Assembly: GCA_003538135.1 (NCBI GenBank)
Contig: DPOR01000005.1
Coordinates: 111,470-175,469 of the forward strand
Length of the DNA stretch: 64,000 nucleotides
Direction of reading: 5' to 3'
DNA from: Oscillospiraceae bacterium
Lineage (GTDB): Bacteria; Bacillota; Clostridia; Oscillospirales; Acutalibacteraceae
Part shown: piece by piece, positions 1,146-62,660 of the stretch
How the letters are laid out: every line of letters starts with the position of its first letter
Numbering within the stretch: position 1 is the stretch's first letter
Translations under genes and position numbers: made by a program
The notes under the pieces: model-generated
Told to the model about the DNA's origin: nothing
Database searches by the model: none
The model's input: only the letters and a program-made list of their open reading frames with translations

Positions 1146-1478
1146 TTATATAAGCCCCGACAGGCTGACTGCTGTTTCATAGGCGTTCTTCGCGGTCTGA
1201 TATACCGCAACGCCGTTTTGCTCTGCGCGGATACGCGCGTCCTCATCGAGGGGCGCGGACTCCGTTAAAATAATGCAGGCTATGTCCGCGAGCGCCGCCA
1301 CGCCTATGGCGTTGACATTGCCCATGACGGTCATCCACGCGTCCCCCGCCGTTGCGCGGGACATGACCCAGCTCAAAAGGTCGCCGCAGTAGCCGCCAGT
1401 GACCTCGCGCGAAAGCGATTCCTCGCTCTCGCACAGAGCTTTAAGCTCAAGCCTTTCTTTTATATCCCCTACGGTCAC
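1146..1478 (-). CDS. DRTGG domain protein
   Basis: ORF-track protein contains TGGYCGDLLSWVMSRA...AIGVAALADIACIILTE. GTG start with a strong AAAGGAGGAG RBS. Overlaps the stop of the upstream gene. Confidence 0.7.
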   Translation of the reverse strand: MTVGDIKERLELKALCESEESLSREVTGGYCGDLLSWVMSRATAGDAWMTVMGNVNAIGVAALADIACIILTESAPLDEDARIRAEQNGVAVYQTAKNAYETAVSLSGLI

Positions 1479-2785
1479 TTCGTCTCCTCCTTTTTGCCCG
1501 TGCTCCTGAACGGCGCGGGAATATACTCCTGCATATCCGTGCCCGCGAGCTCGTCGCGCATGGCGAAAACGCAGTCGTGGAGCGTCGCGCTGCCCCTGAC
1601 TATATCCTCGGCAAGGGCGCGGCAGGTGGGCGCGCCGCAGGTGCCGCAGTCAAGTCCCGGCAGGCGTGCTATTATTTCGGTCATCTTCGACATCATCGCC
1701 ATGGCGTCGGAGACGTTGTCTGCGAGCTTCAGCACGGACGAGCCCTCGAGCGGACACTGCCACTCCATGCTGTCGGGCACGTCGCCGTCCTCCAGATGAT
1801 TCGCCGCAACGGGCAGATATCTTCTGAGCTGCTGGATGCGCGCCTTTGCGACATACGGATTTTCCGCAGTCAGCGAGCCGCCGACGCAGCCGCCCGAGCA
1901 GGCGTTCAGTTCGACGAAATCGAGCCTGTCAAGCTTTTCGTCCTCTATCTCCTCAAGCACTTTTATGACATTCTCTATGCCGTCCGCGGCCAGATATTTG
2001 TCCTTGAGCAGAGCGGCAGATTCGCCGCCGCTCGACGCCCAGCTGACTCCCATGAGCCCCGACTCGCAGGCGTCCTCCGGCGCTCCGAGGTGGTTCATCT
2101 GCTTTAAAAGCACAGGGTATATATCTTTCATCGCTATCGCCGCGTCAACGTTTGACTCCGGCAGGCAGATTGGCTGCTTGACGGCGGTTATCTTCGCGGG
2201 GCAGGGCGTGATAAAAAATATGCCTATCTCCGAAGAATCGAGTCCCGTCTTGGCCTGCGCCTCTTTGTGCGCTATCATGGCGGCGGTCTCCATGGGAGAG
2301 TTGAGCGGCAGAACGTGGGGAATAAGATTCGGGAAGCAGACCCTTATCAGCCGGCACACGGCGGGGCACGCCGAGGATATGACGGGCTTGGGGATATCGT
2401 GCTCCGCGATATATTTTCGCGTAGCGTCGCTTATCAGTTCGGCGCCCCTTGCCACCTCGAAAACCTCATCGAAGCCGAGCCTTTTCAGAGCCGTTATGAC
2501 ATAGCCGATATCGTCAAGGTGGTTAAACTGCCCGTAGAGCGAGGGCGCGGGCAGAGCTACTCTGTATTTGAACTCGATTATTCTGTTCATCGAGTCGCGG
2601 TGCGAATATTTTGCATGGTGCGGGCAGACGCGGATGCACTCGCCGCAGTCGATGCAGCGTTCGGAGATAATATGCGCCTTGCCGTTTCGCACGCGGATAG
2701 CCTGCGTGGGACATCGCTTTATGCAGTTGGTGCAGCCCATGCACTTCTCCTCGTCGAGCCGCACCGAATGGAAATACGTGTTCAT
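1475..2785 (-). CDS. [FeFe]-hydrogenase-family protein, HydS-like putative sensory type (2x[4Fe-4S] ferredoxin N-term, H-cluster domain, C-terminal Cys4 domain)
   Basis: N-term CMGCTNCIKRCP...CIDCGECIRVCP. H-cluster motifs L1 SSACPAV (the proton-relay Cys of the TSCCP motif is replaced by Ala), L2 TPCPAK, L3 ELNACSGGCVGG. C-terminal DCGTCGAPTCRAL. Start set at MNTYF (2785) with a GGGAGGG RBS. Confidence 0.85.
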   Translation of the reverse strand: MNTYFHSVRLDEEKCMGCTNCIKRCPTQAIRVRNGKAHIISERCIDCGECIRVCPHHAKYSHRDSMNRIIEFKYRVALPAPSLYGQFNHLDDIGYVITALKRLGFDEVFEVARGAELISDATRKYIAEHDIPKPVISSACPAVCRLIRVCFPNLIPHVLPLNSPMETAAMIAHKEAQAKTGLDSSEIGIFFITPCPAKITAVKQPICLPESNVDAAIAMKDIYPVLLKQMNHLGAPEDACESGLMGVSWASSGGESAALLKDKYLAADGIENVIKVLEEIEDEKLDRLDFVELNACSGGCVGGSLTAENPYVAKARIQQLRRYLPVAANHLEDGDVPDSMEWQCPLEGSSVLKLADNVSDAMAMMSKMTEIIARLPGLDCGTCGAPTCRALAEDIVRGSATLHDCVFAMRDELAGTDMQEYIPAPFRSTGKKEETK

Positions 2786-2838
2786 ATGGAAAACCCTCCC
2801 GGCGCCCGCGGACACGGGCGCTCAGTCAGCAATCGTTA

Positions 2839-3264
2839 TTATATACTGTTATACACTTTGAGCCTGATAGTCGTTCCGACATCCTTTTCCGTCTCTATGT
2901 TCATCTCATCGGTATACTTCTTTATATTGGGCAAACCCATGCCCGCTCCGAAGCCGAGGGCGCGCACCTTATCGGGCGCGGTCGAATAGCCCTCCTGCAT
3001 GGCGAGCTCGACATTCTCTATGCCGGGGCCGTGGTCGGTGAGCACCATGGAAATGCACTCGGGCGATATCTCGACGTCTATCTCGCCGCCGCCCGCATGA
3101 ATGACCATATTTATCTCGCCCTCATACATGGCTATCGAGACGTTTCTTATCACGTTGGCGTCGAAGCCGAGCCCCTTGAGCACGCGCTTGGTCTCGCCGG
3201 ACGCCTCGCCCGCGCGGGTAAAATCCTCTCCGTCAACGTCAAAGTGGAGCTTCATATTATCCAT
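2839..3264 (-). CDS. HATPase_c serine-protein kinase, anti-sigma-factor (RsbW/SpoIIAB)-like
   Basis: 141 aa; ...HAGGGEIDVEI...DHGPGIENVELAMQEGYST...GFGAGMGLPNI, a GHKL ATPase fold of the partner-switching kinase type. Confidence 0.75.
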   Translation of the reverse strand: MDNMKLHFDVDGEDFTRAGEASGETKRVLKGLGFDANVIRNVSIAMYEGEINMVIHAGGGEIDVEISPECISMVLTDHGPGIENVELAMQEGYSTAPDKVRALGFGAGMGLPNIKKYTDEMNIETEKDVGTTIRLKVYNSI

Positions 3265-3613
3265 TTGCCGCCCGTCCTCCTCTCAGCCCTGCCTGATAGA
3301 GCTTTCCGCAGGAGGTAAACATTTCGAGCTCGGTTTTGAGCACGACTATATCAAGCTCACGTGCAAGGTCGAGTATCGCGTCACCCGGCACCTTGCCGCG
3401 CACGAACACTATGACCTTCATATCCATCATTTCGGCGGTACGCACGACCTGAGGATTGACAAGCCCCGTGAGCAAAACAGCCTGCTCCTTGACAAACGCG
3501 AGCACGTCGCTCATCATGTCGCTTCCGCAGGCGGTATGCACCTCTCTGTCCAGATGATCGCCGCCGCAAAGCAGTTCGGCCGAAAGAATTTCTTTAAGCT
3601 GTAAAACAGTCAT
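3257..3613 (-). CDS. DRTGG domain protein (first gene of operon)
   Basis: Trimmed to MTVLQLKEIL at 3613 (AGAGGGTGGAG RBS). Contains GDHLDREVHTACGSDMMSDVLAF...VLLTGLVNPQVVRTAEMMD. Confidence 0.7.
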   Translation of the reverse strand: MTVLQLKEILSAELLCGGDHLDREVHTACGSDMMSDVLAFVKEQAVLLTGLVNPQVVRTAEMMDMKVIVFVRGKVPGDAILDLARELDIVVLKTELEMFTSCGKLYQAGLRGGRAANG

Positions 3614-3674
3614 TATACTCCACCCTCTTAGCAAAGTTCTCAACTTTTTCGGAGTTTTCCTCCGACTTATGTTG

Positions 3675-3703
3675 ATTATAACATGACAGTGCGGTCTTTT
3701 CAA
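3675..3703 (-). promoter_or_regulatory. Sigma-A promoter of the DRTGG-kinase-HydS-like operon
   Basis: Reverse strand TTGAAA-17-TGtTATAAT (extended -10) about 60 nt upstream of the 3613 start. Confidence 0.5.
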
Positions 3704-3744
3704 CCTCGGGGAAATAAAAACGGGCGGTATTTATCCCGCTGATC

Positions 3745-3866
3745 CCTTCGCAATCTGCTTGCAGGGTCGAGCTTTGCTCGCCTGCTGTAGTTGCTTCATA
3801 AACCGCGGGCGGATAATATCCGCCCCTACACGGTTGCGATATACGCAAGCTGCTGTAATTTTGCGG
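3745..3866 (+). repeat. Intergenic repeat module A, copy 1 (122 bp)
   Basis: About 95% identical to 4215-4336 (offset 470 bp). Contains the hairpin GGCGGATaatATCCGCC and the string cccctacacggtt. Confidence 0.85.
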
Positions 3867-3877
3867 CTATTCACTCT

Positions 3878-3912
3878 GCAGGGTGCGGCGACTCGACGCA
3901 CCGCTGCCGCCG
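3878..3912 (+). repeat. Palindromic unit B (GGGTGCGGCGACTCGACGCACCGC type)
   Basis: Hairpin GGTGCG-gcgactcga-CGCACC followed by tgccgcc. Same unit at 4071-4106, and in inverse orientation at 62613-62660 and 61958-61990. Confidence 0.8.
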
Positions 3913-3967
3913 TCAAAAGCCCAAGTACAGACAATGAAGCCGGGATTTGCGGGAGATAAGCAATTAC

Positions 3968-4023
3968 GGCTCCCCTGCAGGGGAGCTGGCTCGGCGAAGC
4001 CGAGACTGAGGGGTTATTGCACG
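3968..4023 (+). repeat. Repeat module C (double hairpin GGCTCCCCTGCAGGGGAGC / CTCGGCgaaGCCGAG)
   Basis: Near-identical inverted copy at 61830-61884. Confidence 0.8.
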
Positions 4024-4070
4024 GATTCGCCCGATTTTTTCACGGCTGTTTAATTCTTCAATGTCCTTTT

Positions 4071-4106
4071 GTAGGGTGCGGCGACTCAACGCACCGCTGC
4101 CGCCGC
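4071..4106 (+). repeat. Palindromic unit B
   Basis: cttttgtagggtgcggcgactcaacgcaccgctgccgccgcagg; reverse complement nearly identical to 62613-62660. Confidence 0.8.
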
Positions 4107-4188
4107 AGGCGGCACAGAGGGCAAGCCGCAAGCAGAAAGCGTATTGCACAACGCGGATGAATAAATAGATTTTCGGTGACGCTAATGC

Positions 4189-4220
4189 GTCAAAGGGTCG
4201 TCGAGTCGCCGACCCCTACG
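4189..4220 (-). repeat. Palindromic unit B, variant (GGGTCGGCGACTCGACGACCC)
   Basis: caaagggtcgtcgagtcgccgacccctac; same variant at 54585-54617 and 62511-62546. Confidence 0.75.
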
Positions 4221-4336
4221 CAAGCTGCTTGCAGGGTCGAGCTTTGCTCGCCTGCTGTAGTTGCTTCATAAACCGCTGGCGGATGATATCCGCCCCTACA
4301 CGGTTGTGATATACGCAAGCTGCCGTAATTTTGCGG
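4215..4336 (+). repeat. Intergenic repeat module A, copy 2
   Basis: Direct repeat of 3745-3866. Confidence 0.85.
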
Positions 4337-10395: not shown

Positions 10396-10583
10396 GAATG
10401 ACGGGTTTGGGAGAGAGCCGGTTTTCCGGCCACCGAAGGGGCGAAACTCTCAGGTAAAAGAACCGAGCCGGGACGGAGCTCTGGAAAGGCATTTGCACCG
10501 ACGAAGCAATCCGCGAAGCGGAGAATCTTTCAGGTAAAAAGACAGAGTACACCATTGTTTCTTATGGTGTACTCTTTTTTGTT
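10396..10583 (+). promoter_or_regulatory. Tandem glycine riboswitch (two aptamers) with terminator expression platform
   Basis: Aptamer 1: GGGAGAG...CACCGAAGGGGCGAA...CUCAGGUAAAAGAAC. Aptamer 2: CUCUGGAAAG...CACCGACGAAGCAAU...CUUUCAGGUAAAAAGACAG. Then hairpin AGAGTACACC-N12-GGTGTACTCT plus T6. Confidence 0.85.
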
Positions 10584-20040: not shown

Positions 20041-20126
20041 CTCAGGGTTCGAATCCCTTGAAAATAAAAAGAACGGAAGCAACACCTGCAGTATCGCTTC
20101 CGTTCTTGGCGCGCTGCAAGGGATAC
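20041..20126. repeat. Tandem repeat copy 1 (T-arm-like hairpin, terminator hairpin, 18-nt tRNA-Arg 3'-end fragment)
   Basis: ctcagggttcgaatcccttgaaaataaaaagaacggaagcaacacctgcagtatcgcttccgttcttggcgcgctgcaaggga is about 95% identical to 20236-20325 (period 195 bp). Confidence 0.8.
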
Positions 20127-20235: not shown

Positions 20236-20325
20236 CCCTCTCAGGGTTCGAATCCCTTGAAAATAAAAAAAGAACGGAAGCAACACCTGCGGTATTGCTT
20301 CCGTTCTTGGCGCGCTGCAAGGGAT
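20236..20325. repeat. Tandem repeat copy 2 (includes the genuine tRNA-Arg 3' end and its terminator)
   Basis: See copy 1. On the minus strand, GAACGGAAGC-N15-GCTTCCGTTC plus T7ATTTT forms the terminator (about 20253-20300) immediately 3' of tRNA-Arg. Confidence 0.8.
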
Positions 20326-20384
20326 TCGAACCCCTGACCTTTTGGTTCGTAGCCAAACACTCTATCCAACTGAGCTAGCAGCGC
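20308..20384 (-). tRNA. tRNA-Arg (anticodon ACG), CCA encoded
   Basis: GCGCTGCTAGCTCAGTTGGATAGAGTGTTTGGCTACGAACCAAAAGGTCAGGGGTTCGAATCCCTTGCAGCGCGCCA has cloverleaf-compatible arms and anticodon loop CUACGAA. Confidence 0.9.
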
Positions 20385-28496: not shown

Positions 28497-28582
28497 AATA
28501 TAACCTATATCCCCGCGGCAGCCGCGACATTGCAAATTACCGCCCATCGTTTTCAGGGTGCTTATGATATCCGCTTGCGGTT

Positions 28583-28652
28583 TTTGCAGTAACTTGCGGC
28601 TATTCATTTTGTAGGGGGCGGCGACTCGACACATCAACGGCGGCAATGCCGC
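28583..28652 (+). repeat. Palindromic unit B with conserved 5' flank (aacttgcggctattcattttgtagggggcggcgactcgac...)
   Basis: Shares ttgcggctattca...gtaggg.gcggcgactcgac with 3850-3912. Confidence 0.75.
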
Positions 28653-54584: not shown

Positions 54585-54993
54585 TTTTGTAGGGGTCGGC
54601 GACTCGACGACCCTTTGACGCGCCAGCGGCACGATGTTAGACTATAAAATTTTTACCCTCTGCCTTCGCTACCTACCTTAACTAAATATTTTATCTCTTA
54701 CAGCGTTTCGGCATTTTCTTTTTATTTGAAAAAGAAAACGCCTGCAAAAGAAAAGCAAACTCAGGGCTTCGCCCCGAGACCCCGCGAACGCCGCGCCGCA
54801 GTACATAGGTTTCTCTTCTCAGTAGGCAGCTCGGCACATTCGCCCGCAAACGCGCTGGAGCTTGAACGAGTGCGGGCTCGTGCGGCTTGCGTTGCAAGCC
54901 GTCCCCTCGCGTCCTCAGTTAGCTTGTTCCACTGCGACGCGGCTATTGGTGGCTTGTTCCTCATAATTTATCAAGTCGCTTGCTTTACCTTTT
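54585..54993 (+). repeat. Large inverted repeat, copy 1 (unit B variant plus ~370-bp GC-rich body)
   Basis: Aligns base-for-base (with a ~140-bp indel) to the reverse complement of 62026-62546: ttttgtaggggtcggcgactcgacgaccctttg...cggcacgatgtta...ctcagggcttcgccccgagaccccgcgaacgccgcgccgcagtacata...tttatcaagtcgcttgctttacctttt. Confidence 0.85.
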
Positions 54994-55133
54994 GCGAATC
55001 TCCTCATTAGTATTTTTCGTGTTCTACGGATTTAGAATAGCCGTAAATACCGCATAAACCGCAAGCGGATGATATTTCCCCTACACGGTTAAATATACAT
55101 CAGCCTCTGTATTTTCTGTAGCCGAACAAAGTT

Positions 55134-55178
55134 CACCCTGCGGTATACCTCTTGCAGCTGCGCTGTATCTTCCGATTT
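55134..55178 (+). repeat. Repeat module D-like copy
   Basis: caccctgcggtatacctcttgcagctgcgctgtatcttccgattt vs cccctacggtgtaccgcttgcaattgcgccgcaactcccgattt. Confidence 0.5.
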
Positions 55179-55202
55179 GTCCCCCTCTTTCCCGCACCGC
55201 AC

Positions 55203-55242
55203 ATAAAAATCCTGCCCGACAACGCCGCGGACAGGATTCTGT
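55203..55242 (-). terminator. Intrinsic terminator of the 2-hydroxyacid dehydrogenase gene
   Basis: Reverse strand ATCCTGTCCGCGGCGTTGTCGGGCAGGAT plus TTTTTATGTG. Confidence 0.6.
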
Positions 55243-55271
55243 TCTTCCGAAACCACGGGGCGTGTTCTCTT

Positions 55272-56213
55272 TCAGTAGCCTCGGACGAAATCTATTTCAT
55301 TGATTATCTCCTCGCCCGAGATGTAGCGGCGCAGGTTTTCGAGACAGATGTCCCATATCTTTCTCTCGGTCGCCGGGTCGTGACCGAAGCCGCGCCCTGA
55401 TATGTGCGGCGTTATCAGCACATTCGGCATACTCCACAGCGGGGAATCCGCCGCGAGCGGCTCTTTTTCGAGCACGTCCAATACCGCGCCCGCTATCCGC
55501 CTCTCCTCAAGTGCACGCGTGAGCGCGGGAGTGTCGATGAGGCTTCCTCTGCCGACGTTTATAAGCAGCGCGTCACTTTTCATCAGGGCGAATTTTTTGC
55601 CGTCCAAAATATGTCCCGTCTCTTTAGTGTTCGGCAGGCAGCCTATTATCAAATCCGCTTGCGGCAGCAGGCTGTCGAGGTTCGAGAGGGTGTGTATCTC
55701 TTCAAAATATTGCGCGGGAGCGCCCGTTCTGCGAACGCCGATATTTTTTGTCCCGAACGCGGATAAGCGCTTTGCGACGTTCGAGCCTATGTCGCCCGTG
55801 CCGAGAATGAGCGCAGTCTTGCCCTCGAGAGTGCGCTCCGCTCCCGCATCGCGCCAGAGCGCCGAGCGCTGATTTTCGATATATTCGGGAAACCGCCTGT
55901 ACAGGCAAAGCACAGCGCCGACAACATATTCGGAAATGACTCCGCCGAACGCACCGGACGCAGTCGCGAGCCTTATCCCCTGCGGAAAAGCGCCGTCGCA
56001 GGTGTATATATCCGCGCCCGCCCAGGTCATCTGAATAAATTTCAGGCTTTTCGCCTGTCGTATTTTTTCCGTGCGCGGCTCGCCTATAACCGCTTCGGCG
56101 TCGCCTATATCGCTTTTTCTGTCTCCAAAAGAAAATACGCAGCTGTTTTCAAACTCCCTTAGCCGCCGTTTAACTTCGTCGCTGCACGGTGCGGTTATCA
56201 GAACCTCTGTCAT
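55272..56213 (-). CDS. D-isomer-specific 2-hydroxyacid dehydrogenase family protein
   Basis: NAD-binding GTGDIGSNVAKRL; catalytic region ...ITPHISG... Confidence 0.8.
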   Translation of the reverse strand: MTEVLITAPCSDEVKRRLREFENSCVFSFGDRKSDIGDAEAVIGEPRTEKIRQAKSLKFIQMTWAGADIYTCDGAFPQGIRLATASGAFGGVISEYVVGAVLCLYRRFPEYIENQRSALWRDAGAERTLEGKTALILGTGDIGSNVAKRLSAFGTKNIGVRRTGAPAQYFEEIHTLSNLDSLLPQADLIIGCLPNTKETGHILDGKKFALMKSDALLINVGRGSLIDTPALTRALEERRIAGAVLDVLEKEPLAADSPLWSMPNVLITPHISGRGFGHDPATERKIWDICLENLRRYISGEEIINEIDFVRGY

Positions 56214-56282
56214 GCGATCACCTCATTGAATTTTATGCATGCCGATAAAATTTATCCCCCCGCGGTGCGGAGGGATTTTTTA

Positions 56283-57152
56283 TCAGTCGCCCAGGCTCTT
56301 GAGCGCGTCTGCCAGGCGGGACAGATCCTCTTTGTCGAAGAAATCTATCTCGAGCACTCCGCTCTCCTTGCCGGGCTTCGTGCCGACCTTGACCTTTCTT
56401 CCGAGGAAGTCGGTCAGGGCGAGTTCTACTTCATCGTAGTAGCTCGCACGGCGGGTGGCGGGCTTCTCCGCCTTGGGCTCTTTATTTCTTTTTTTGACTA
56501 ATTTTTCAACATCGCGGACGGTCAGTCCCTTTTCGATGACTATATCCGCCGTCTCGATTATGTCCTGCTCATCCCTGAAGCCGAGCAGGGCGCGGGCGTG
56601 ACCGGGCGAGAGCTTGCCGTCCGAGACGAGCGCAATGACGCTGTCCGGAAGCTTTAACAGTCTCAGCGCGTTCGCTATCGCGGGGCGGGACTTGCCTACG
56701 CGCTCCGCCGCCTCATCCTGAGTTAAGGAGAGCGTGTCCATGAGCGCTTTTATGCCCTGCGCCTCTTCAATCGCGTTGAGGTCCTCGCGCTGGAGATTTT
56801 CAATCAGGGCGAGAGCCATAGCCTCGTCGTCGCTGAGCTCTTTTATAACGACGGGAACCTCCGTCAGCCCCGCCATGCGCGAGGCGCGCCAGCGGCGTTC
56901 GCCGGCGACGAGCTGATAGCTGCCGTCGGGCATCGGGCGCACAAGAAGCGGCTGAATGACTCCGTGCTTCGCTATGCTGTCCGCAAGCTCGGCGAGCGCA
57001 TCCTCGTCGAAAACTTTTCTCGGCTGGTCGCGGTTGGGCTCGATGTCCATAGTCTTGAGCTTGACCGCTCCGGTCGAAGATATCTCTTCAATTGAGTTGT
57101 CGGCAAACAGGGCGTCAAGCCCGCGGCCGAGTCCGCCTTTTTTTGCTGCCAT
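56283..57152 (-). CDS. spo0J: Chromosome partitioning protein ParB/Spo0J
   Basis: GLGRGLDALF...IQPLLVRP...GERRWRAS (ParB box); HTH; trimmed to MAAKKGG. Confidence 0.9.
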   Translation of the reverse strand: MAAKKGGLGRGLDALFADNSIEEISSTGAVKLKTMDIEPNRDQPRKVFDEDALAELADSIAKHGVIQPLLVRPMPDGSYQLVAGERRWRASRMAGLTEVPVVIKELSDDEAMALALIENLQREDLNAIEEAQGIKALMDTLSLTQDEAAERVGKSRPAIANALRLLKLPDSVIALVSDGKLSPGHARALLGFRDEQDIIETADIVIEKGLTVRDVEKLVKKRNKEPKAEKPATRRASYYDEVELALTDFLGRKVKVGTKPGKESGVLEIDFFDKEDLSRLADALKSLGD

Positions 57153-57171
57153 TTGTGTCCTCCCCTTTCGC

Positions 57172-57948
57172 TCAGTCAGCATTCTTTCCGTTGAGTCTCA
57201 GGAACTCGTCGGCAAAGTCGTTATATGCGCTCGTGCCCTTGGAGCTCCTGTCATAGTACATTATCGGCTGCCCGAAGCTCGGCGCCTCTGAGAGTCTGAC
57301 GTTTCTCGGAATGACAGAGGAATAGACCTTCTTGGGGAAGAAGCGCTTGACCTCGTCCACGACCTGCTGAGTGAGATTGAGTCTGCCGTCGTACATCGTG
57401 AGCAGAACGCCCTCTATCTCTATCATCGGGTTATATAATCTCTTTACCTGCCTGACTGTCGACATAAGCTGTGACAGACCCTCGAGCGCGTAGTATTCAC
57501 ACTGGATAGGCACCATGACAGTGTCCGACGCGCACAGGGCATTGAGGGTAATAAGTCCGAGCGAGGGCGGGCAGTCGAAGAATATAAAGTCGAAATCCGC
57601 CTTAACGGGAGCTATTGCCGTTTTGAGTCTGCTCTCGCGGCGATCCATGTCAACGAGCTCAAGCTCCGCGCCGGCGAGCGCCATGTTTGACGGCAGCACC
57701 CAGACGTTATCGTATTCGCTCTCTATGATAACATCTTTGGCAGGGACGGAGTTTATCATCACATCGTAAGCCGACTGATCGAGAGCGCGCTTGTTTATGC
57801 CCAGTCCGCTTGTCGCGTTGCCCTGCGGGTCAATGTCCGCAAGGAGAACCTTATACCCTTTGTCGCCGACGGCAGCCGCGAGGTTGACCGCCGAGGTCGT
57901 CTTGCCGACGCCGCCCTTCTGATTGACTATTGCAATAACCTTTCCCAA
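57172..57948 (-). CDS. soj: Chromosome partitioning ATPase ParA/Soj
   Basis: TTG start (GGAG RBS) giving (M)GKVIAIVNQKGGVGKTTSAVNLAAA. The long ORF-track N-extension is rejected because it runs through the parS site. Confidence 0.85.
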   Translation of the reverse strand: MGKVIAIVNQKGGVGKTTSAVNLAAAVGDKGYKVLLADIDPQGNATSGLGINKRALDQSAYDVMINSVPAKDVIIESEYDNVWVLPSNMALAGAELELVDMDRRESRLKTAIAPVKADFDFIFFDCPPSLGLITLNALCASDTVMVPIQCEYYALEGLSQLMSTVRQVKRLYNPMIEIEGVLLTMYDGRLNLTQQVVDEVKRFFPKKVYSSVIPRNVRLSEAPSFGQPIMYYDRSSKGTSAYNDFADEFLRLNGKNAD

Positions 57949-58039
57949 AACGAAGACTCCTTTGCCTTTTTCGGCCAAAAATACTGCAAAAATTATACCA
58001 CAACGCCCCGAAAAGGTCAATCGGAATATTGTACAGCGA

Positions 58040-58055
58040 TGTTTCACGTGAAACA
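58040..58055. promoter_or_regulatory. parS centromere-like site (TGTTTCACGTGAAACA)
   Basis: Perfect 16-bp palindrome matching the Firmicute parS consensus tGTTNCACGTGAAACa, between noc and soj. Confidence 0.8.
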
Positions 58056-58159
58056 TTGAAACAGCAAAGCGGCAGGTTTTATATAAAAACCTGCCGCCCT
58101 GCCGTGATGTGGGGTGTGAAAGAGAAAGATATGGTAATGGGAGATTGTCTGTTTTATGC

Positions 58160-58969
58160 TCAGCCCGCGCTTTGGCAGGCAAATTCCTTGGGGATTCGCA
58201 CCGTGAACTCTATGCTGTCCTGCGTCTCCGTGCGCAGAGCCTCGGCCTTTATCCCCGCCTCGCGCATGGTGTCCACCGCATGGTTTATTGTATTGACGAA
58301 GATGCGTACATCTTTAAAAAGCTTTATAACCCGCGGCTTCTGCGCGGTCTCGTCCTCCAGAATCGCGTTGACGAGCCTCTCGGTCTGCGCGACGTTGAGA
58401 GATCGCTTTATCACCGTGTCTGCGGCGGCGTGCAGCTTGTCCTCATTTTCGATTCTCAGCAGGGCTCGGGCGTGGCGTTCCGTCAGCTCGGCCGCGATTA
58501 TCTTCTCGCGCACCTCCTCCGGCAGGCGCAGAAGGCGCAGCTTGTTTGACACGGTGGACGGAGCTTTTCCGAGCTTCTCGGATATCTGCGCCCTGTCGAG
58601 CCCGAATTTTTCGCCGAGTGACTCAATGGCAAGCGCCTCCTCGAAGAAGTTCAGATCGCGCCGCTGCAAATTCTCTATCACCGAGTAGACGGCCGCCTGT
58701 GCCGAGTCCGCATTGATAACAATGCACGGCACGCGGTCAAAGCCCGATTCCGCGGCGGCTCGGAGTCTCCGCTCCCCCGCTATCAGCTCATAGCTGCCGT
58801 CCGCGTCCTGTGCGCGCACGGAGAGCGGCTGCAAAATCCCGTTGCGGCGTATGCTCTCGCCGAGAGACGCGAGCTCGGCGGAGTCGAAGTGTTTTCGCGG
58901 CTGATTCGGATTTGTTTTTATTCTGTCTACGGGTATCAGCAGAACCGCTCCGGCTTTTTTAACGTCCAT
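58160..58969 (-). CDS. noc: ParB-like nucleoid occlusion protein
   Basis: Trimmed to MDVKKAGAV. ParB N-domain (GERRLRAA) and HTH. Position between rsmG and soj is canonical for noc. Confidence 0.75.
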   Translation of the reverse strand: MDVKKAGAVLLIPVDRIKTNPNQPRKHFDSAELASLGESIRRNGILQPLSVRAQDADGSYELIAGERRLRAAAESGFDRVPCIVINADSAQAAVYSVIENLQRRDLNFFEEALAIESLGEKFGLDRAQISEKLGKAPSTVSNKLRLLRLPEEVREKIIAAELTERHARALLRIENEDKLHAAADTVIKRSLNVAQTERLVNAILEDETAQKPRVIKLFKDVRIFVNTINHAVDTMREAGIKAEALRTETQDSIEFTVRIPKEFACQSAG

Positions 58970-59094
58970 GGCACTTGTCCTTTCCGAGAATAGAAGAACC
59001 GCCGTTCCTCTGTGATAAAAGCATATCACCGGGAATGGCGGTTGTCCACTGTTTTCGGTCGGGCAAAAACGAGCCGTTCGGAAGCGTTTCTTCT

Positions 59095-59805
59095 TTATAT
59101 GAGCGGCTTTTTTGAAATCTGTGCCGAAGGGCGCGGATATTTTGTCGCAGTATGCGATATCTTTTTTACGTTTATCAGAACTCTCTCTCCGCCGTCGGGC
59201 AGGATAAAAGACTCTGTCTTTTCTGTCTCGCCGCCGAGCACGGCAATTGCTTTTTCGGCGCAGCCGAGCTCCTCGCTGCCCTTTGCGCCCTTCATCGCGC
59301 AGAATGTTCCGCCGACCTTCACGAACGGCAGGCAGTATTCGCACAGCACGTTCATCGCCGCGACCGCGCGCGAGACCGCAAAATCGAAGCTCTCGCGCAG
59401 CTCGCCCCGACCCGCCTCCTCGGCGCGCGCATGGACTACATTGGCGGAAAGTCCGAGCTCTTCAACGCTCTGCGAGACGAACGCGAGCTTTTTGCCGGTC
59501 GAGTCGAGCATGGTGAGCTCTATCTCGGGACGGGCTATCAGCAGCGGAATTCCCGGAAAGCCGCCGCCCGTGCCAACGTCTATGACCCTGTCCCCCGCGT
59601 TGAGCTCGATCATGCGAAGCGCAGTGAGGCTGTCCGCAAAGTGCTTTACGGCTATCCCCTCGGGGTCGGTTATGGCGGTGAGATTGAGCACCTTGTTTTT
59701 TTCGACGAGCAGCGACGCAAAAAGCTCGAATCTTTCGAGCGCCTGCGCGTCTAAGTCAACGCCGATATCGGCGCAGATATTTTTAAGCCTGTCCTTATTT
59801 ATCAT
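59095..59805 (-). CDS. rsmG: 16S rRNA (guanine527-N7)-methyltransferase RsmG (GidB)
   Basis: VIDVGTGGGFPGIPLLI SAM motif; 236 aa. Confidence 0.9.
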   Translation of the reverse strand: MINKDRLKNICADIGVDLDAQALERFELFASLLVEKNKVLNLTAITDPEGIAVKHFADSLTALRMIELNAGDRVIDVGTGGGFPGIPLLIARPEIELTMLDSTGKKLAFVSQSVEELGLSANVVHARAEEAGRGELRESFDFAVSRAVAAMNVLCEYCLPFVKVGGTFCAMKGAKGSEELGCAEKAIAVLGGETEKTESFILPDGGERVLINVKKISHTATKYPRPSAQISKKPLI

Positions 59806-61675
59806 GTTTTCTGTTCTCCCTCTCCAGATGAATCAGCAGCACCGAAATGTCCGCAGGGCTGACTCCCGATATTCTCGACGCCTGGCCGACGTTCTCGGGG
59901 CGTATCTTTGAGAGCTTCTCGACTGCCTCAAGTCTCAGCCCGCCGAGCGCGGCATAGTCTATATCCCGCGGGATTTTTTTGACCTCCAAACGGCGCATCT
60001 CGTCAACCTGCGCCTGCTGGCGCTTTATGTAGCCCTCATATTTGATATCTATTTCAACCTGCTCGAACACCTCTTTGGGATAATTCGGGCGTGTCGGGTC
60101 AAACGGTGCGAGCAGCTTATAGTCGGCCTGCGGACGGCGCAGCAGCTCCGAGAGCCTTATTCCGCCGTCTATGGGCGATGTTTCACGTGAAACAAGCAGG
60201 TCGTTTAATTCCTTGCAGGCGTGGATAGTCGTGCTTTCCGCGCGGCGCTTCTCCTCGTCTATGAGCTCAAGCTTGCGGCAAAACGCATCGTAGCGCTCCT
60301 GCGAGATAAGTCCCAACTTGTAGCCCGTGGGAGTTAAGCGGCGGTCTGCGTTGTCCTGGCGGAGCAAAAGTCTGTATTCCGAGCGCGAGGTCATCATTCT
60401 GTACGGGTCGGAGCAGCCCTTTGTGACGAGGTCGTCTATGAGCGTTCCGATATACGATCCGGCGCGGTCGAGCTCGAGCGCGGGCTTGCCCTGAACTTTA
60501 AGCGCCGCGTTGATTCCCGCAACAAGACCCTGCGCGGCGGCCTCCTCATAGCCGCTGGAGCCGTTGAACTGACCCGCGCCGAAGAGCCCGTCGAAGTCGA
60601 TGAACTCAAGGCTGCGTTTGAGCGCAAGCGGGTCTATGCAGTCATACTCTATCGCATAGGCGGTGCGCATGACTTCGCAGTGCTCGAGTCCGGGAATCGT
60701 ATGCAGGAACTTCAGCTGCACATCCTCGGGCAGTGAGGACGAAAGTCCCTGAAGATACATCTCCAGAGTCTCTGCGCCGCAGGGCTCTATGAATATCTGA
60801 TGCCGCTCCTTCTCTGAAAAGCGGACTATTTTATCCTCTATGCTCGGGCAGTAGCGCGGCCCTACTCCGTCTATCTTGCCCGAAAAAAGCGGCGAGCGGT
60901 GGAGATTCGAGAGAATGACTTTCTTAGTCTCCTCCCCCGTATAAGTCACATAGCACTCGCTCTTGTTCTTCACCTCGTACTTGCCCGTGAACGAGAACGG
61001 CACTATATCCTCATCGCCGAACTGCGGCTCGAGCTTTTCGGTGTCAACGCTTCTGCGGTTGACTCGCGCGGGCGTGCCCGTCTTAAAGCGGCGCAGCGGG
61101 AGTCCGAGAGCCTTGAGCGATTTCGAAAGCTCCGTTGCCGGGAACATCCCGTCCGGACCGCTCTCATATGAGACGTCGCCGATATAGACTCTGCCGCCGA
61201 GGAATGTGCCCGTTGCGAGCACCACACACTTCGCGCGGTAGACGGCCTCGAGTCTGGTGGTAAGCACCCACTCGCCGGAGTCATAATAAATATCGACTAT
61301 TTCAGCCTGTCTGAGCGTCAGATTCTCCTGCTCCTCAAGCGTTCTTTTCATATATGCGCTGTATGCGCGTCTGTCAATCTGCGCGCGCGGGCTGTGAACC
61401 GCGGGGCCTTTGCCGAGATTGAGCATACGCATTTGAAGCGTATTCGCGTCTGCCGCAAGACCCATCTCGCCGCCGAGCGCGTCTATCTCGCGCACGAGGT
61501 GTCCTTTTGAAGTTCCGCCTATCGACGGGTTGCACGGCATATTGCCGACCCAATCGAGGTTGACGGTAAACACCTCCGTCCTGCAGCCGAGACGCGCCGA
61601 AGCAAGCCCCGCCTCGATTCCCGCGTGACCCGCGCCTATGACGGCAACATCTATTCTACCCGCATCGTATTTCAT
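59795..61675 (-). CDS. mnmG: tRNA uridine 5-carboxymethylaminomethyl modification enzyme MnmG (GidA)
   Basis: Trimmed to MKYDAGRIDVAVIGAGHAGIEA (FAD GxGxxG); 626 aa. Contains an internal parS copy at 60179-60194. Confidence 0.9.
   Translation of the reverse strand: MKYDAGRIDVAVIGAGHAGIEAGLASARLGCRTEVFTVNLDWVGNMPCNPSIGGTSKGHLVREIDALGGEMGLAADANTLQMRMLNLGKGPAVHSPRAQIDRRAYSAYMKRTLEEQENLTLRQAEIVDIYYDSGEWVLTTRLEAVYRAKCVVLATGTFLGGRVYIGDVSYESGPDGMFPATELSKSLKALGLPLRRFKTGTPARVNRRSVDTEKLEPQFGDEDIVPFSFTGKYEVKNKSECYVTYTGEETKKVILSNLHRSPLFSGKIDGVGPRYCPSIEDKIVRFSEKERHQIFIEPCGAETLEMYLQGLSSSLPEDVQLKFLHTIPGLEHCEVMRTAYAIEYDCIDPLALKRSLEFIDFDGLFGAGQFNGSSGYEEAAAQGLVAGINAALKVQGKPALELDRAGSYIGTLIDDLVTKGCSDPYRMMTSRSEYRLLLRQDNADRRLTPTGYKLGLISQERYDAFCRKLELIDEEKRRAESTTIHACKELNDLLVSRETSPIDGGIRLSELLRRPQADYKLLAPFDPTRPNYPKEVFEQVEIDIKYEGYIKRQQAQVDEMRRLEVKKIPRDIDYAALGGLRLEAVEKLSKIRPENVGQASRISGVSPADISVLLIHLERENRKHDK
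60179..60194. promoter_or_regulatory. parS site inside mnmG coding sequence
   Basis: TGTTTCACGTGAAACA; an identical perfect palindrome lies at 58040-58055. Confidence 0.75.
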
Positions 61676-61829
61676 TCGGTCAGTACCTCTATTCTCAACA
61701 GTATATCGCGCCGAACGCAAAGAGCGCGGCGCGGAAAATTTATAATCAGTCGGTGTCGTTGCGACGAGCAGACGCACCCTACAAAGGGACTTTGAAAAAT
61801 TAAACGGTCGGAGCAAAGCGGGCAACTGC

Positions 61830-61884
61830 GTGCAATAACCCCTCAGTCTCGGCTTCGCCGAGTCGGCTCCCCTGCAGGGGAGCC
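61830..61884 (-). repeat. Repeat module C, inverted copy
   Basis: Reverse complement of 3968-4023. Confidence 0.8.
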
Positions 61885-61957
61885 GACGAAACTTTTCTTT
61901 GTAATATCAAAAACCGCTTTCAAAGTTGGTCGAAATAAACATCCTGTGCCGCTATCG

Positions 61958-61990
61958 CGTCAGCGGTGCGTCGAGTCGCCGCACCCTACG
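61958..61990 (-). repeat. Palindromic unit B
   Basis: gcggtgcgtcgagtcgccgcaccctac. Confidence 0.75.
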
Positions 61991-62025
61991 GTCTGTGTTT
62001 AACATTGTAAATCATGCAAGCTCCA

Positions 62026-62546
62026 AAAAGGTAAAGCAAGCGACTTGATAAAAACCGATGAGCAAGTTTCCAATAGCCGTGCCGCAGTGTAACAGGCTAT
62101 CTGAGAACGCGGGCAACGTCGCCGAAGCGCCGCCGGTGGCGGATAAAGCGAGGCGATGTTGGCGAAAAACAAGGAGCATAGCGCCCGCTCCAAGGGCGAT
62201 AGGCGACTATGTTTTGAGAGGGCTGAACGGCTTGCGCAGCAAGCCGCACGAGCCCGCACTCGTCCAAGCTCCAGCGCGTTTGCGGGCGAATGTGCCGAGC
62301 TACCTACTGAGTAGCACAAGCTATGTACTGCGGCGCGGCGTTCGCGGGGTCTCGGGGCGAAGCCCTGAGTTTGCTTTTCTTTTGCAGGCGTTTTCTTTTT
62401 CAAATAAAAAGAAAATGCCGAAACGCTGTAGAAGATAAAATATTTAGCTAAGGTAGGTAGCGAAGGTGGTGGGTAAAAAATTTATAGTATAACATCGTGC
62501 CGCTGTCACAGCAAAGGGTCGTCGAGTCGCCGACCCCTACAAAGTC
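62026..62546 (-). repeat. Large inverted repeat, copy 2 (includes ~140-bp insertion relative to copy 1)
   Basis: Reverse complement aligns with 54585-54993. Ends with unit B variant caaagggtcgtcgagtcgccgacccctacaaa. Confidence 0.85.
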
Positions 62547-62612
62547 ACTGAAAATCTATTTATTACCGCCCGTGTCTTGTAATACACTCTCTGCTTGAGG
62601 TTTGACCTCTGT

Positions 62613-62660
62613 GCCGCCTGCGGCGGCAGCGGTGCGTCGAGTCGCCGCACCCTACAAAAA
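62613..62660 (-). repeat. Palindromic unit B
   Basis: cctgcggcggcagcggtgcgtcgagtcgccgcaccctacaaaaag, the reverse complement of 4063-4110. Confidence 0.8.

Follow-up and report, generated by a model that had tools for sequence, protein, structure and literature searches.

A REP-associated structured repeat family at the par/gid locus and other intergenic sites of gut Oscillospiraceae

The window analyzed here is a 64,000-nt stretch of contig DPOR01000005.1 (positions 111,470 to 175,469, forward strand) from an Oscillospiraceae bacterium, and its subject is a noncoding repeat, two inverted copies of which flank a cluster of par and gid genes. A repeat search of the window aligned 54586-54902 with 62227-62543 (317 nt, 93% complementary) and 54908-54993 with 62026-62111 (86 nt, 83% complementary). 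Pairwise alignment showed that the start TTTGTAGGGGTCGGCGACTCGACGACCCTTTG and the end TTTATCAAGTCGCTTGCTTTACCTTTT are common to both copies, in agreement with an earlier, sequence-only reading of this DNA. Copy 1 is 408 nt long and copy 2 is 518 nt long; the extra block that this reading had seen in copy 2 is present (62112-62226), with a length of ~115 nt by alignment and not ~140 nt. The gene content and the gene junction at copy 1 that it had reported were likewise recovered. Between the arms, Pfam matches identify only minus-strand genes, which encode a 2-hydroxyacid dehydrogenase, ParB, ParA, a second ParB (Noc-like), RsmG/GidB, and MnmG/GidA. MnmE is encoded just outside arm 2, also on the minus strand, and copy 2 sits in the mnmE-mnmG gap of ~1.0 kb. 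The gene calls place the end of a plus-strand metallophosphoesterase gene before arm 1, so that copy 1 lies at a convergent gene junction. The par/gid cluster also contains an exact 20-nt direct repeat, GCGATGTTTCACGTGAAACA, at 58036-58055 and 60175-60194, which includes the parS-type palindrome TGTTTCACGTGAAACA; judged by their sequence, the two sites are candidate ParB-binding sites.

The two arms do not form a private pair and are members of a dispersed noncoding repeat family of gut Oscillospiraceae with a body of ~360 nt. A profile of 68 family members matched only two places in the window, copy 1 (E = 9e-119) and copy 2 (E = 8e-98 and 1e-15). An exact 22-mer search found seven copies in two GTDB genomes ("bacterium H07622-L1_cleanbin_000020" and an Oscillospiraceae metagenome-assembled genome, MAG), and a 30-mer search found, as a lower bound, more than 120 human-gut metagenome loci; these yielded at least 95 distinct full copies, which fall into a size class of ~411 nt and another of 521-534 nt. 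No match to the element was found by blastn in 72,556 plasmids and 50,697 phage records. The genes on the two sides of the copies were oriented (+,-) in 24 cases, (+,+) in 24, and (-,-) in 23, and the divergent context was the rarest (nine cases). Because all four contexts occur, the element is not a leader or riboswitch of a fixed downstream gene. In a different species, an orthologous copy (L015:2000-2369) is 97% identical to 54586-54955 of the window, whereas the flanks are only 86-87% identical; selection, recent replacement, or re-insertion at the same short flanking repeat could account for this difference.

The first 47 nt of each arm are a separate short repeat, distinct from the body. 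The palindromic start unit described in the sequence-only reading belongs to this short repeat, of which the window contains nine copies against 0.00 expected, all of them intergenic. The unit has the features of a repetitive extragenic palindrome (REP), a GTAG-tagged type of repeat with a link to REP-associated tyrosine transposases (RAYTs) (PMC3733652). It is a short, GC-rich, extragenic, multicopy palindrome of the kind for which 20-40 nt is the customary length, it has GTAG at one end of the palindrome, with three stem families that begin GTAGGG, and it forms inverted doublets or arrays (4067-4220 in the window; the site designated C in strains L229 and L232; and 61757-62659, which is occupied by REP arrays). 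The 4-bp stem covaries among copies by a compensatory swap, GTCG/CGAC versus TGCG/CGCA, and the hairpin folds as DNA with -13.6 kcal/mol (z = -3.45). At least three stem families with the same GTAGGG head occur in related sequence, and 1.14 Mb of related loci contained 87 heads of the REP1 type and 32 of the REP2 type. The REP and the body are linked: a co-oriented GTAGGG REP was present on 38 of 58 distinct left flanks (66%), and an opposite REP alone was present on none of the 58. Copy 2 has a further REP after its 36-nt tail (61946-61989), so it is flanked by co-oriented REPs. A third type of GTAGGG-headed hairpin, GTAGGGGCGGATATCATCCGCCC, and degenerate forms were seen among repeat modules at 55040-55100 and 28553-28580, and a 130-nt direct repeat (94% identity; 3737-3866 and 4207-4336) surrounds the REP cluster at 4 kb. 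The intergenic regions are mosaics of several repeat families.

In the body, conservation among the 95 copies begins near 54660 and stops sharply at 54993 (copy 1 coordinates). A core of ~80 nt, from GCGTTTC through GAGACCCC, is invariant or nearly invariant in all copies and species and consists of hairpin A (54710-54742), a 17-nt spacer, hairpin B (54760-54778), and ACCCC. Both core hairpins include a single position at which the plus strand of copy 1 reads A.C and the minus strand reads G.U (or G.T), and a T-run follows hairpin B on that minus strand but not on the plus strand. The terminator scan called a site at 54778-54760 in copy 1, on the minus strand, and the equivalent site in copy 2, on the plus strand, each with eight pairs (six GC), a three-nucleotide loop, and the tail TTTGCTTTTC; this predicted terminator agrees with the sequence criterion for Rho-independent termination. 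The core folded with -19.8 kcal/mol on the T-run strand versus -16.7 on the other strand. In copy 1, the G.U pairs, the T-run, and the terminator call thus all fall on the minus strand, which makes the strand opposite to that carrying the GTAG of the REP the probable functional one for the core.

Covariation was assessed on 68 sequences with a structure that we supplied, consisting of hairpins A and B and the stems P1, P3, and P4 of the multi-stem domain. The results showed pairing in 93.6% of cells versus 37-51% for slid-partner controls, and 72 cells changed on both sides versus 16.4 in shuffles (none of 500 shuffles reached 72), counts that overstate independence because the sequences are related. 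Support for P1 comes mainly from conservation, and the covariation comes from P3, in which one pair appears as CG, GC, AU, and UA, and from P4, which alternates between GGCTTGC/GCAAGCC and GGCGTAC/GTACGCC. The repeat body is thus structured, as had been proposed from the sequence, and the hairpin CGGCTTGCgttGCAAGCCG singled out in that proposal is P4 (54882-54902). The structural variants are shuffled among copies, suggesting recombination between copies. Because the P3 and P4 stems covary, the body may function as RNA or as a single strand. Rfam offered no support for the suggestion that the repeat could be a noncoding RNA: the whole window, both copies included, gave no match to the element at the gathering threshold. 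In a permissive search of both copies, the best matches were chance matches of microRNA models on hairpin A (22-24 bits against cutoffs of 55-106), and eight related loci gave nothing beyond such chance matches. A coding function was rejected, since the open reading frames (ORFs; 62-117 aa) change frame between P3 variants that differ by 2 nt and no ORF is conserved; the open frames of the body are by-products of GC-rich sequence. With regard to promoters, copy 1 has a forward-strand sigma-70-like site in the REP tail. An apparent -10 box at the left border was found in 45 of 57 sequences and in 38 of 57 after a composition-preserving shuffle and was not counted as evidence. On the reverse strand, the right end, whose sequence differs between subtypes, contained no consistent -35/-10 promoter.

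Long copies account for 15 of the 95 and differ from the short ones by a nested insertion of 111-115 nt. This insertion had 20 matches with 97-100% identity, including matches in L148, L160, L212, L214, L228, and L230. It is always located directly 3' of P4 on its own forward strand and can therefore occupy either side of P4, in opposite orientations, and its short ends are inverted (AAC..GTCGCC / GGCGAC..GTT). It looks like a tiny hairpin-targeting mobile insertion within the larger repeat. Other copies have been altered in different ways. Among the mnmE-mnmG copies, hairpin B is split by a 187-nt insertion in L228:7460-7650, and in L230:7317-8140 it is swapped for the GC hairpin ACAGGGGGGAACCCCCTGT with the T-run kept, a compensated stem replacing P4 in the same copy. 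Decayed, truncated, and internally deleted family copies also occur.

Table 1. Positions of the repeat copies, their parts, and the REP units in the window.
Feature	Position	Strand	Basis or remark
Copy 1, REP unit fused to the body	54586-54632	+	TTT-GTAG-GG, GTCG/CGAC stem, conserved loop GCGACTCGA, tail ending GCGGCAC
Copy 1, body, short form	54633-54993	+ (family "forward" is the window plus strand)	Profile E = 9e-119; sharp right border at 54993 in the conservation profile of 95 copies
Hairpin A, GGCGTTTTCTTTTT-CAAAT-AAAAAGAAAATGCC	54710-54742	-	68/68 sequences identical at nearly every pair
Hairpin B, CTCGGGGC-GAA-GCCCTGAG, then TTTGCTTTTCTTTT	54745-54778	-	Terminator-like; hairpin and spacer invariant in 68/68
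Multi-stem domain	54790-54943		P1, 54790-54802 with 54931-54943; P3, 54842-54848 with 54871-54877; P4, 54882-54902
Copy 2, long form	62026-62543	- (forward is the window minus strand)	Repeat search, alignment, terminator scan, profile; 100% identical to L227
Copy 2, REP unit	62497-62543
Copy 2, hairpin A	62387-62419
Copy 2, hairpin B	62351-62369		T-run on the plus strand
Copy 2, nested insertion of 111-115 nt, directly 3' of P4	62112-62226	-	Own terminator-like hairpin at 62191-62173, minus strand
REP unit after the 36-nt tail of copy 2	61946-61989	-	Repeat search
Further REP unit upstream of copy 2, just past the mnmE stop	62612-62659	-	Repeat search
Degenerate REP before mnmG	61757-61785	-	Repeat search
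Site with only a REP-like unit in the window	28581-28635	+	REP and body, in either orientation, in strains 98-99% identical
REP doublet, REP+ / spacer / REP-, REPIN-like (REPIN, inverted REP doublet)	4067-4220		Full or partial body in relatives (L072, L167, L168, L212)

Strain-to-strain variation was followed in six long conspecific contigs with identical RsmG and 97-99.9% DNA identity over 20 kb around the locus, one of which (L227) represents essentially the same strain as the window. Among strains 97-99% identical to the window, the mnmE-mnmG gap ranged from 590 to 1025 nt and the gap at site C ranged from 555 to 953 nt. At site C, the window has REP(+) and body(+), one other strain has body(-) and REP(-), and L229 and L232 have REP(+)-spacer-REP(-), in which the REP is kept and the body is absent. 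The mnmE-mnmG site exists in short, long, and doubly inserted forms and is in the opposite orientation in one strain, and a third copy, just past the right end of the window, is flipped in one strain. Altogether, orientation flips were seen at sites A, B, and C and at the 28.6-kb site. The 28.6-kb and 4.1-kb sites lack the body in the window, and relatives have it at both. When filled and empty forms of the 28.6-kb site were compared, the extra segment was bounded on both sides by TTCATT(TT)GTAGGGG, that is, by the heads of two REPs.

The sequence-only reading had considered the pair as substrates of homologous recombination that may have inverted, or may still switch, the 7-kb par/gid segment, and had suggested that such an event may lie behind the gene orientation left of copy 1, with an origin assumed to be beyond 64 kb. 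The arms are long enough for RecA-dependent recombination (317 nt, 93% identity). However, every spanning contig showed the same order and orientation. The six conspecific contigs share the order Fur, ZnuA, ABC genes, mnmE, mnmG, rsmG, parB, parA, parB, 2-hydroxyacid dehydrogenase, and convergent metallophosphoesterase, and the related species L015 (flanks 86-87%) is collinear across both arms. No recombinant junctions were found in these six contigs, in L015, L140, or L146, or in related-species loci spanning the mnmE-mnmG gap, and an invertible segment, which would be found in both orientations, was not seen. Since mnmE (outside) and mnmG (inside) are co-oriented across arm 2, the segment is in its usual order. 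The GC skew is negative throughout the window, with no sign change at either arm, and Pfam found no invertase gene among the gene products of the locus. The plus-strand block to the left (20.6-50.3 kb) ends at tRNA genes (20.3 and 50.5 kb), 4 kb from arm 1, and its borders are collinear in relatives, which argues against an inversion between the arms as the cause of the unusual gene orientation. Many family copies and an identical gene order in relatives, which the sequence-only reading had itself named as findings that would speak against its idea, are thus largely what was observed, and we regard an inversion of the segment by this pair as very improbable. The inverted arrangement of two copies around the par/gid cluster is incidental. 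The proposed nearby origin was not borne out either: in conspecific contigs, the 5.7 kb past mnmE contain Fur, ZnuA, and ABC-transporter genes and not jag-yidC-rnpA-dnaA. The two exact parS-like sites within the segment, together with the monotonic skew, would allow the origin to lie at some point to the right, and the parS-like sites fit a broadly origin-proximal region.

Different flanks are joined across other family copies in two contigs, a hint, in favor of the inversion idea, that family copies can recombine. L212 (4.9 kb) contains window 1254-4117, the element, and then the reverse complement of 54524-52978, as expected if a copy at 4.1 kb had exchanged with an inverted copy at site C, such as that in L230, and had thereby inverted ~50 kb; L158 has a similar flank mismatch across a family copy. 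Both are short metagenome contigs with a central repeat of 0.5 kb, and their joins may stem from chimeric assembly or from recombination between other pairs of copies. A tRNA-Arg gene (20308-20384, minus strand) at the left border of the 30-kb plus-strand block is accompanied by a 64-nt direct repeat (94%; 20061-20124 and 20262-20325, 201 nt apart) that duplicates a hairpin and the 3' end of the tRNA and looks like a scar of integration or excision. Elsewhere in the window, a tandem glycine riboswitch was found at 10398-10547 on the plus strand, with two aptamers of 56.9 and 41.4 bits.

Any explanation of the element has to accommodate its repetition, the lack of a conserved ORF, its conserved structure and strand asymmetry, its linkage to REPs, and its differences between strains at fixed, collinear sites. 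In our judgment, the chances are about even that it is selfish repeat DNA that is associated with REPs, moves or recombines, and carries polar transcription signals. The left end of the body usually adjoins the tail of a co-oriented REP with a GTAG head, within REP mosaics that resemble the bacterial interspersed mosaic elements (BIMEs) of Escherichia coli. In this model, the unit of REP and body would spread into, and recombine within, resident intergenic REP clusters. If it can attach to either arm of a REP doublet, this would explain the orientation flips at fixed sites, and the uniformity of the copies could come from the spread of a conserved master sequence, from gene conversion, or from both. 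The invariant core and the covarying stems would be kept because the element must fold on one strand (minus for copy 1, plus for copy 2). By analogy with REP/RAYT and IS200/IS605 systems (IS, insertion sequence), a REP-recognizing HUH/Y1 enzyme, RAYT-like or IS200-like, might move the element in trans as single-stranded DNA, and each landed copy would bring a one-directional predicted Rho-independent terminator that is presumed to be active in vivo.

Several observations weigh against such selfish repeat DNA. The two ends of the body have no inverted similarity, so that the terminal inverted repeats (TIRs) of a miniature inverted-repeat transposable element (MITE) were not found. The compared filled and empty sites showed no clear target duplication, and since their junctions coincide with REP heads, homologous recombination would account for them just as well. 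Genes for a transposase, a RAYT, or a relaxase turned up neither next to any copy nor elsewhere in 1.14 Mb of related loci; these loci, which cover part of the genomes only, also contained no REP-flanked ORF of 110-330 aa with an HUH motif, and Pfam detected no transposase domain in the neighbors of the 4-kb REP cluster. The source genomes are fragmented MAGs, and the copy counts represent loci overall and not copies per genome. Finally, the high identity of the L015 ortholog resembles the effect of purifying selection acting along the entire element, which fits an RNA useful to the host better than it fits junk DNA. The main rival is a multicopy gene family for a structured small RNA (sRNA) of ~230-250 nt, transcribed on the strand on which hairpins A and B pair perfectly and running from near the right border through P1-P4 to the hairpin B terminator, with the REPs as mere neighbors. 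Covarying stems, the location of the G.U versus A.C asymmetry and of a canonical terminator on the same strand, the independence of orientation from neighboring genes, a fold with z = -2.35 for the reverse-strand segment, and the better conservation of the element than of its coding flanks between species (97% versus 87%) would all be expected of such a gene. However, no conserved promoter was seen upstream on the putative RNA strand, ~95 nt past the terminator are conserved too, and no Rfam family matches. The 115-nt insertion lies in the domain of 15 of the 95 copies, one orientation placing a terminator in the middle of the RNA; truncated and deleted copies are common; and strains 97-99% identical to the window differ by gains, losses, and flips of copies. 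We therefore hold an sRNA gene family to be possible and the less probable of the two explanations.

Another explanation concerns hairpin B, which is also found outside Firmicutes. The 22-mer CTCAGGGCTTCGCCCCGAGACC (hairpin B and ACC) occurs at ~85 proteobacterial and acidobacterial loci, where the identity extends to as many as 27 bases, and is conserved across several otherwise diverged groups of Acidobacteria and Beta-, Gamma-, and Alphaproteobacteria (within L001-L104, e.g., L001, L004, L013, L028, and L092). In those loci no conserved block lies between it and a variable stretch, and an ORF of ~100 aa usually comes next; these ORFs match a NikA-like mobilization protein in Pfam (E = 1e-13 to 1e-22), and one locus has a relaxase-like ORF. 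From its position, this site is probably a region of the origin of transfer (oriT) type. By extension, the invariant core could be an oriT-like hairpin and nick or recognition site for a relaxase-type HUH nuclease, related to the nikA-upstream site, and the copies could be orphan sites from a mobilizable element. The identity of 22-27 nt at hairpin B with the NikA-upstream loci, the common layout of long hairpin, spacer, hairpin B, and ACCC(C), and an invariant spacer after hairpin B that exceeds the needs of a terminator U-tract are in line with this explanation, and GCGAAGC is a known extra-stable DNA mini-hairpin. However, profiles of the 110 nt upstream of the 22-mer (Acidobacteria and Burkholderiales; 22-mer excluded) missed the window element, their best matches being elsewhere (E = 0.4-1); the element has no match in the 72,556 plasmids; one plasmid match of the 22-mer has no mobilization gene nearby; and the oriT identity of the proteobacterial site is itself drawn from its position only. 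An inverted repeat and nick region beside relaxase or accessory genes, as in an oriT, was not seen for the element, no mobilization gene lying beside any Firmicute copy. Because the upstream profiles did not detect the element and its copies lack such genes, we consider an oriT-like origin unlikely. Rfam scanning of the NikA-proximal 22-mer loci was empty, a scan of viral contigs with the 22-mer gave a single match, of the proteobacterial type, and a full-text literature search for the hairpin sequence returned no paper. In Candidatus Onthomonas and a Clostridia MAG (L039, L048, L066, L070, L083, L085, L086, L105, and L106), hairpin B belongs to a different repeat of 560-700 nt, which has TIRs of ~45 nt (…GTCAGTGCGGTGGCCTGCC), an outward-facing module of hairpin, spacer, and GC hairpin at both ends, in the layout described above, and an optional internal duplication of ~130 nt; only hairpin B is common with the window element.

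Dispersed intergenic repeats shape bacterial genomes: assemblies break at them, rearrangements start from them, and they place terminators or promoters between genes. Here, several GTAG-headed families of a REP type well described in Proteobacteria occur in a lineage of gut Oscillospiraceae, with a companion element that is unusually long, structured, and highly conserved. If this companion is moved by a REP-recognizing enzyme, it would be a natural example of REP/RAYT cargo; if it is an RNA, it would represent an unclassified multicopy structured RNA of abundant human-gut bacteria; and if the core is oriT-like, the element would move as single-stranded DNA via a conjugation-type nuclease, or integrative and conjugative elements would start chromosomal transfer from many points. 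In practical terms, the inverted pair beside the par/gid genes is no evidence of an origin-proximal inversion.

The element belongs to a class that is uncharacterized, though familiar in concept: a REP/BIME-like mosaic accompanied by a long structured repeat. Like the REPs, BIMEs, and REPINs of Escherichia coli, Pseudomonas, and Stenotrophomonas, with their RAYTs, the window units are extragenic, GC-rich, imperfect palindromes with a 5' GTAG head that are found alone, as inverted doublets, and mixed with other motifs in mosaics. Unlike BIMEs, whose linker motifs are tens of nucleotides long, a conserved, structured body of ~360 nt follows the REP tail here, and unlike in REP/RAYT systems, the 1.14 Mb of related loci yielded no RAYT gene. 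GTAG repeats have been listed in Proteobacteria, Cyanobacteria, Chloroflexi, and the PVC (Planctomycetes-Verrucomicrobia-Chlamydiae) phyla, and Firmicutes are never mentioned in that account (PMC3733652). With the nonautonomous derivatives of IS200/IS605, the palindrome-associated transposable elements (PATEs), which Y1 HUH transposases move as single strands, the element shares a hairpin-bearing left end, the lack of TIRs and of a clear target duplication, and strand-specific hairpins. Copy 2 and others lie between two co-oriented hairpin units, as in the left and right ends of PATEs, and the nested 115-nt insertion likewise targets one side of a hairpin strand-specifically. In contrast to these derivatives, the body has no recognizable right-end hairpin and no fixed target tetranucleotide, no TnpA, TnpB, or IscB is associated with it, and the HEARO/omega-RNA models of Rfam do not match. 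The resemblance to oriT regions upstream of nikA-like/MOBP operons consists of 22-27 nt of identity at hairpin B and ACCC(C) and the same order of hairpins, whereas adjacent mobilization genes and significant similarity outside the hairpin are absent and the chromosomal copies are many. The Correia elements of Neisseria, BOX and RUP (repeat unit of pneumococcus) of pneumococci, and ERIC (enterobacterial repetitive intergenic consensus) of enterobacteria are noncoding repeats of at most a few hundred nucleotides that are dispersed, modular, strain-variable, and foldable and can supply terminators or promoters. Like these MITE-type repeats, the element described here is noncoding, dispersed between genes, modular, strain-variable, and able to fold; unlike them, and unlike the Candidatus Onthomonas sister element with its ~45-nt TIRs, its body is without TIRs or clear target duplication, and it is distinguished by a double-hairpin core that does not vary and by a border that is sharp at one end only.

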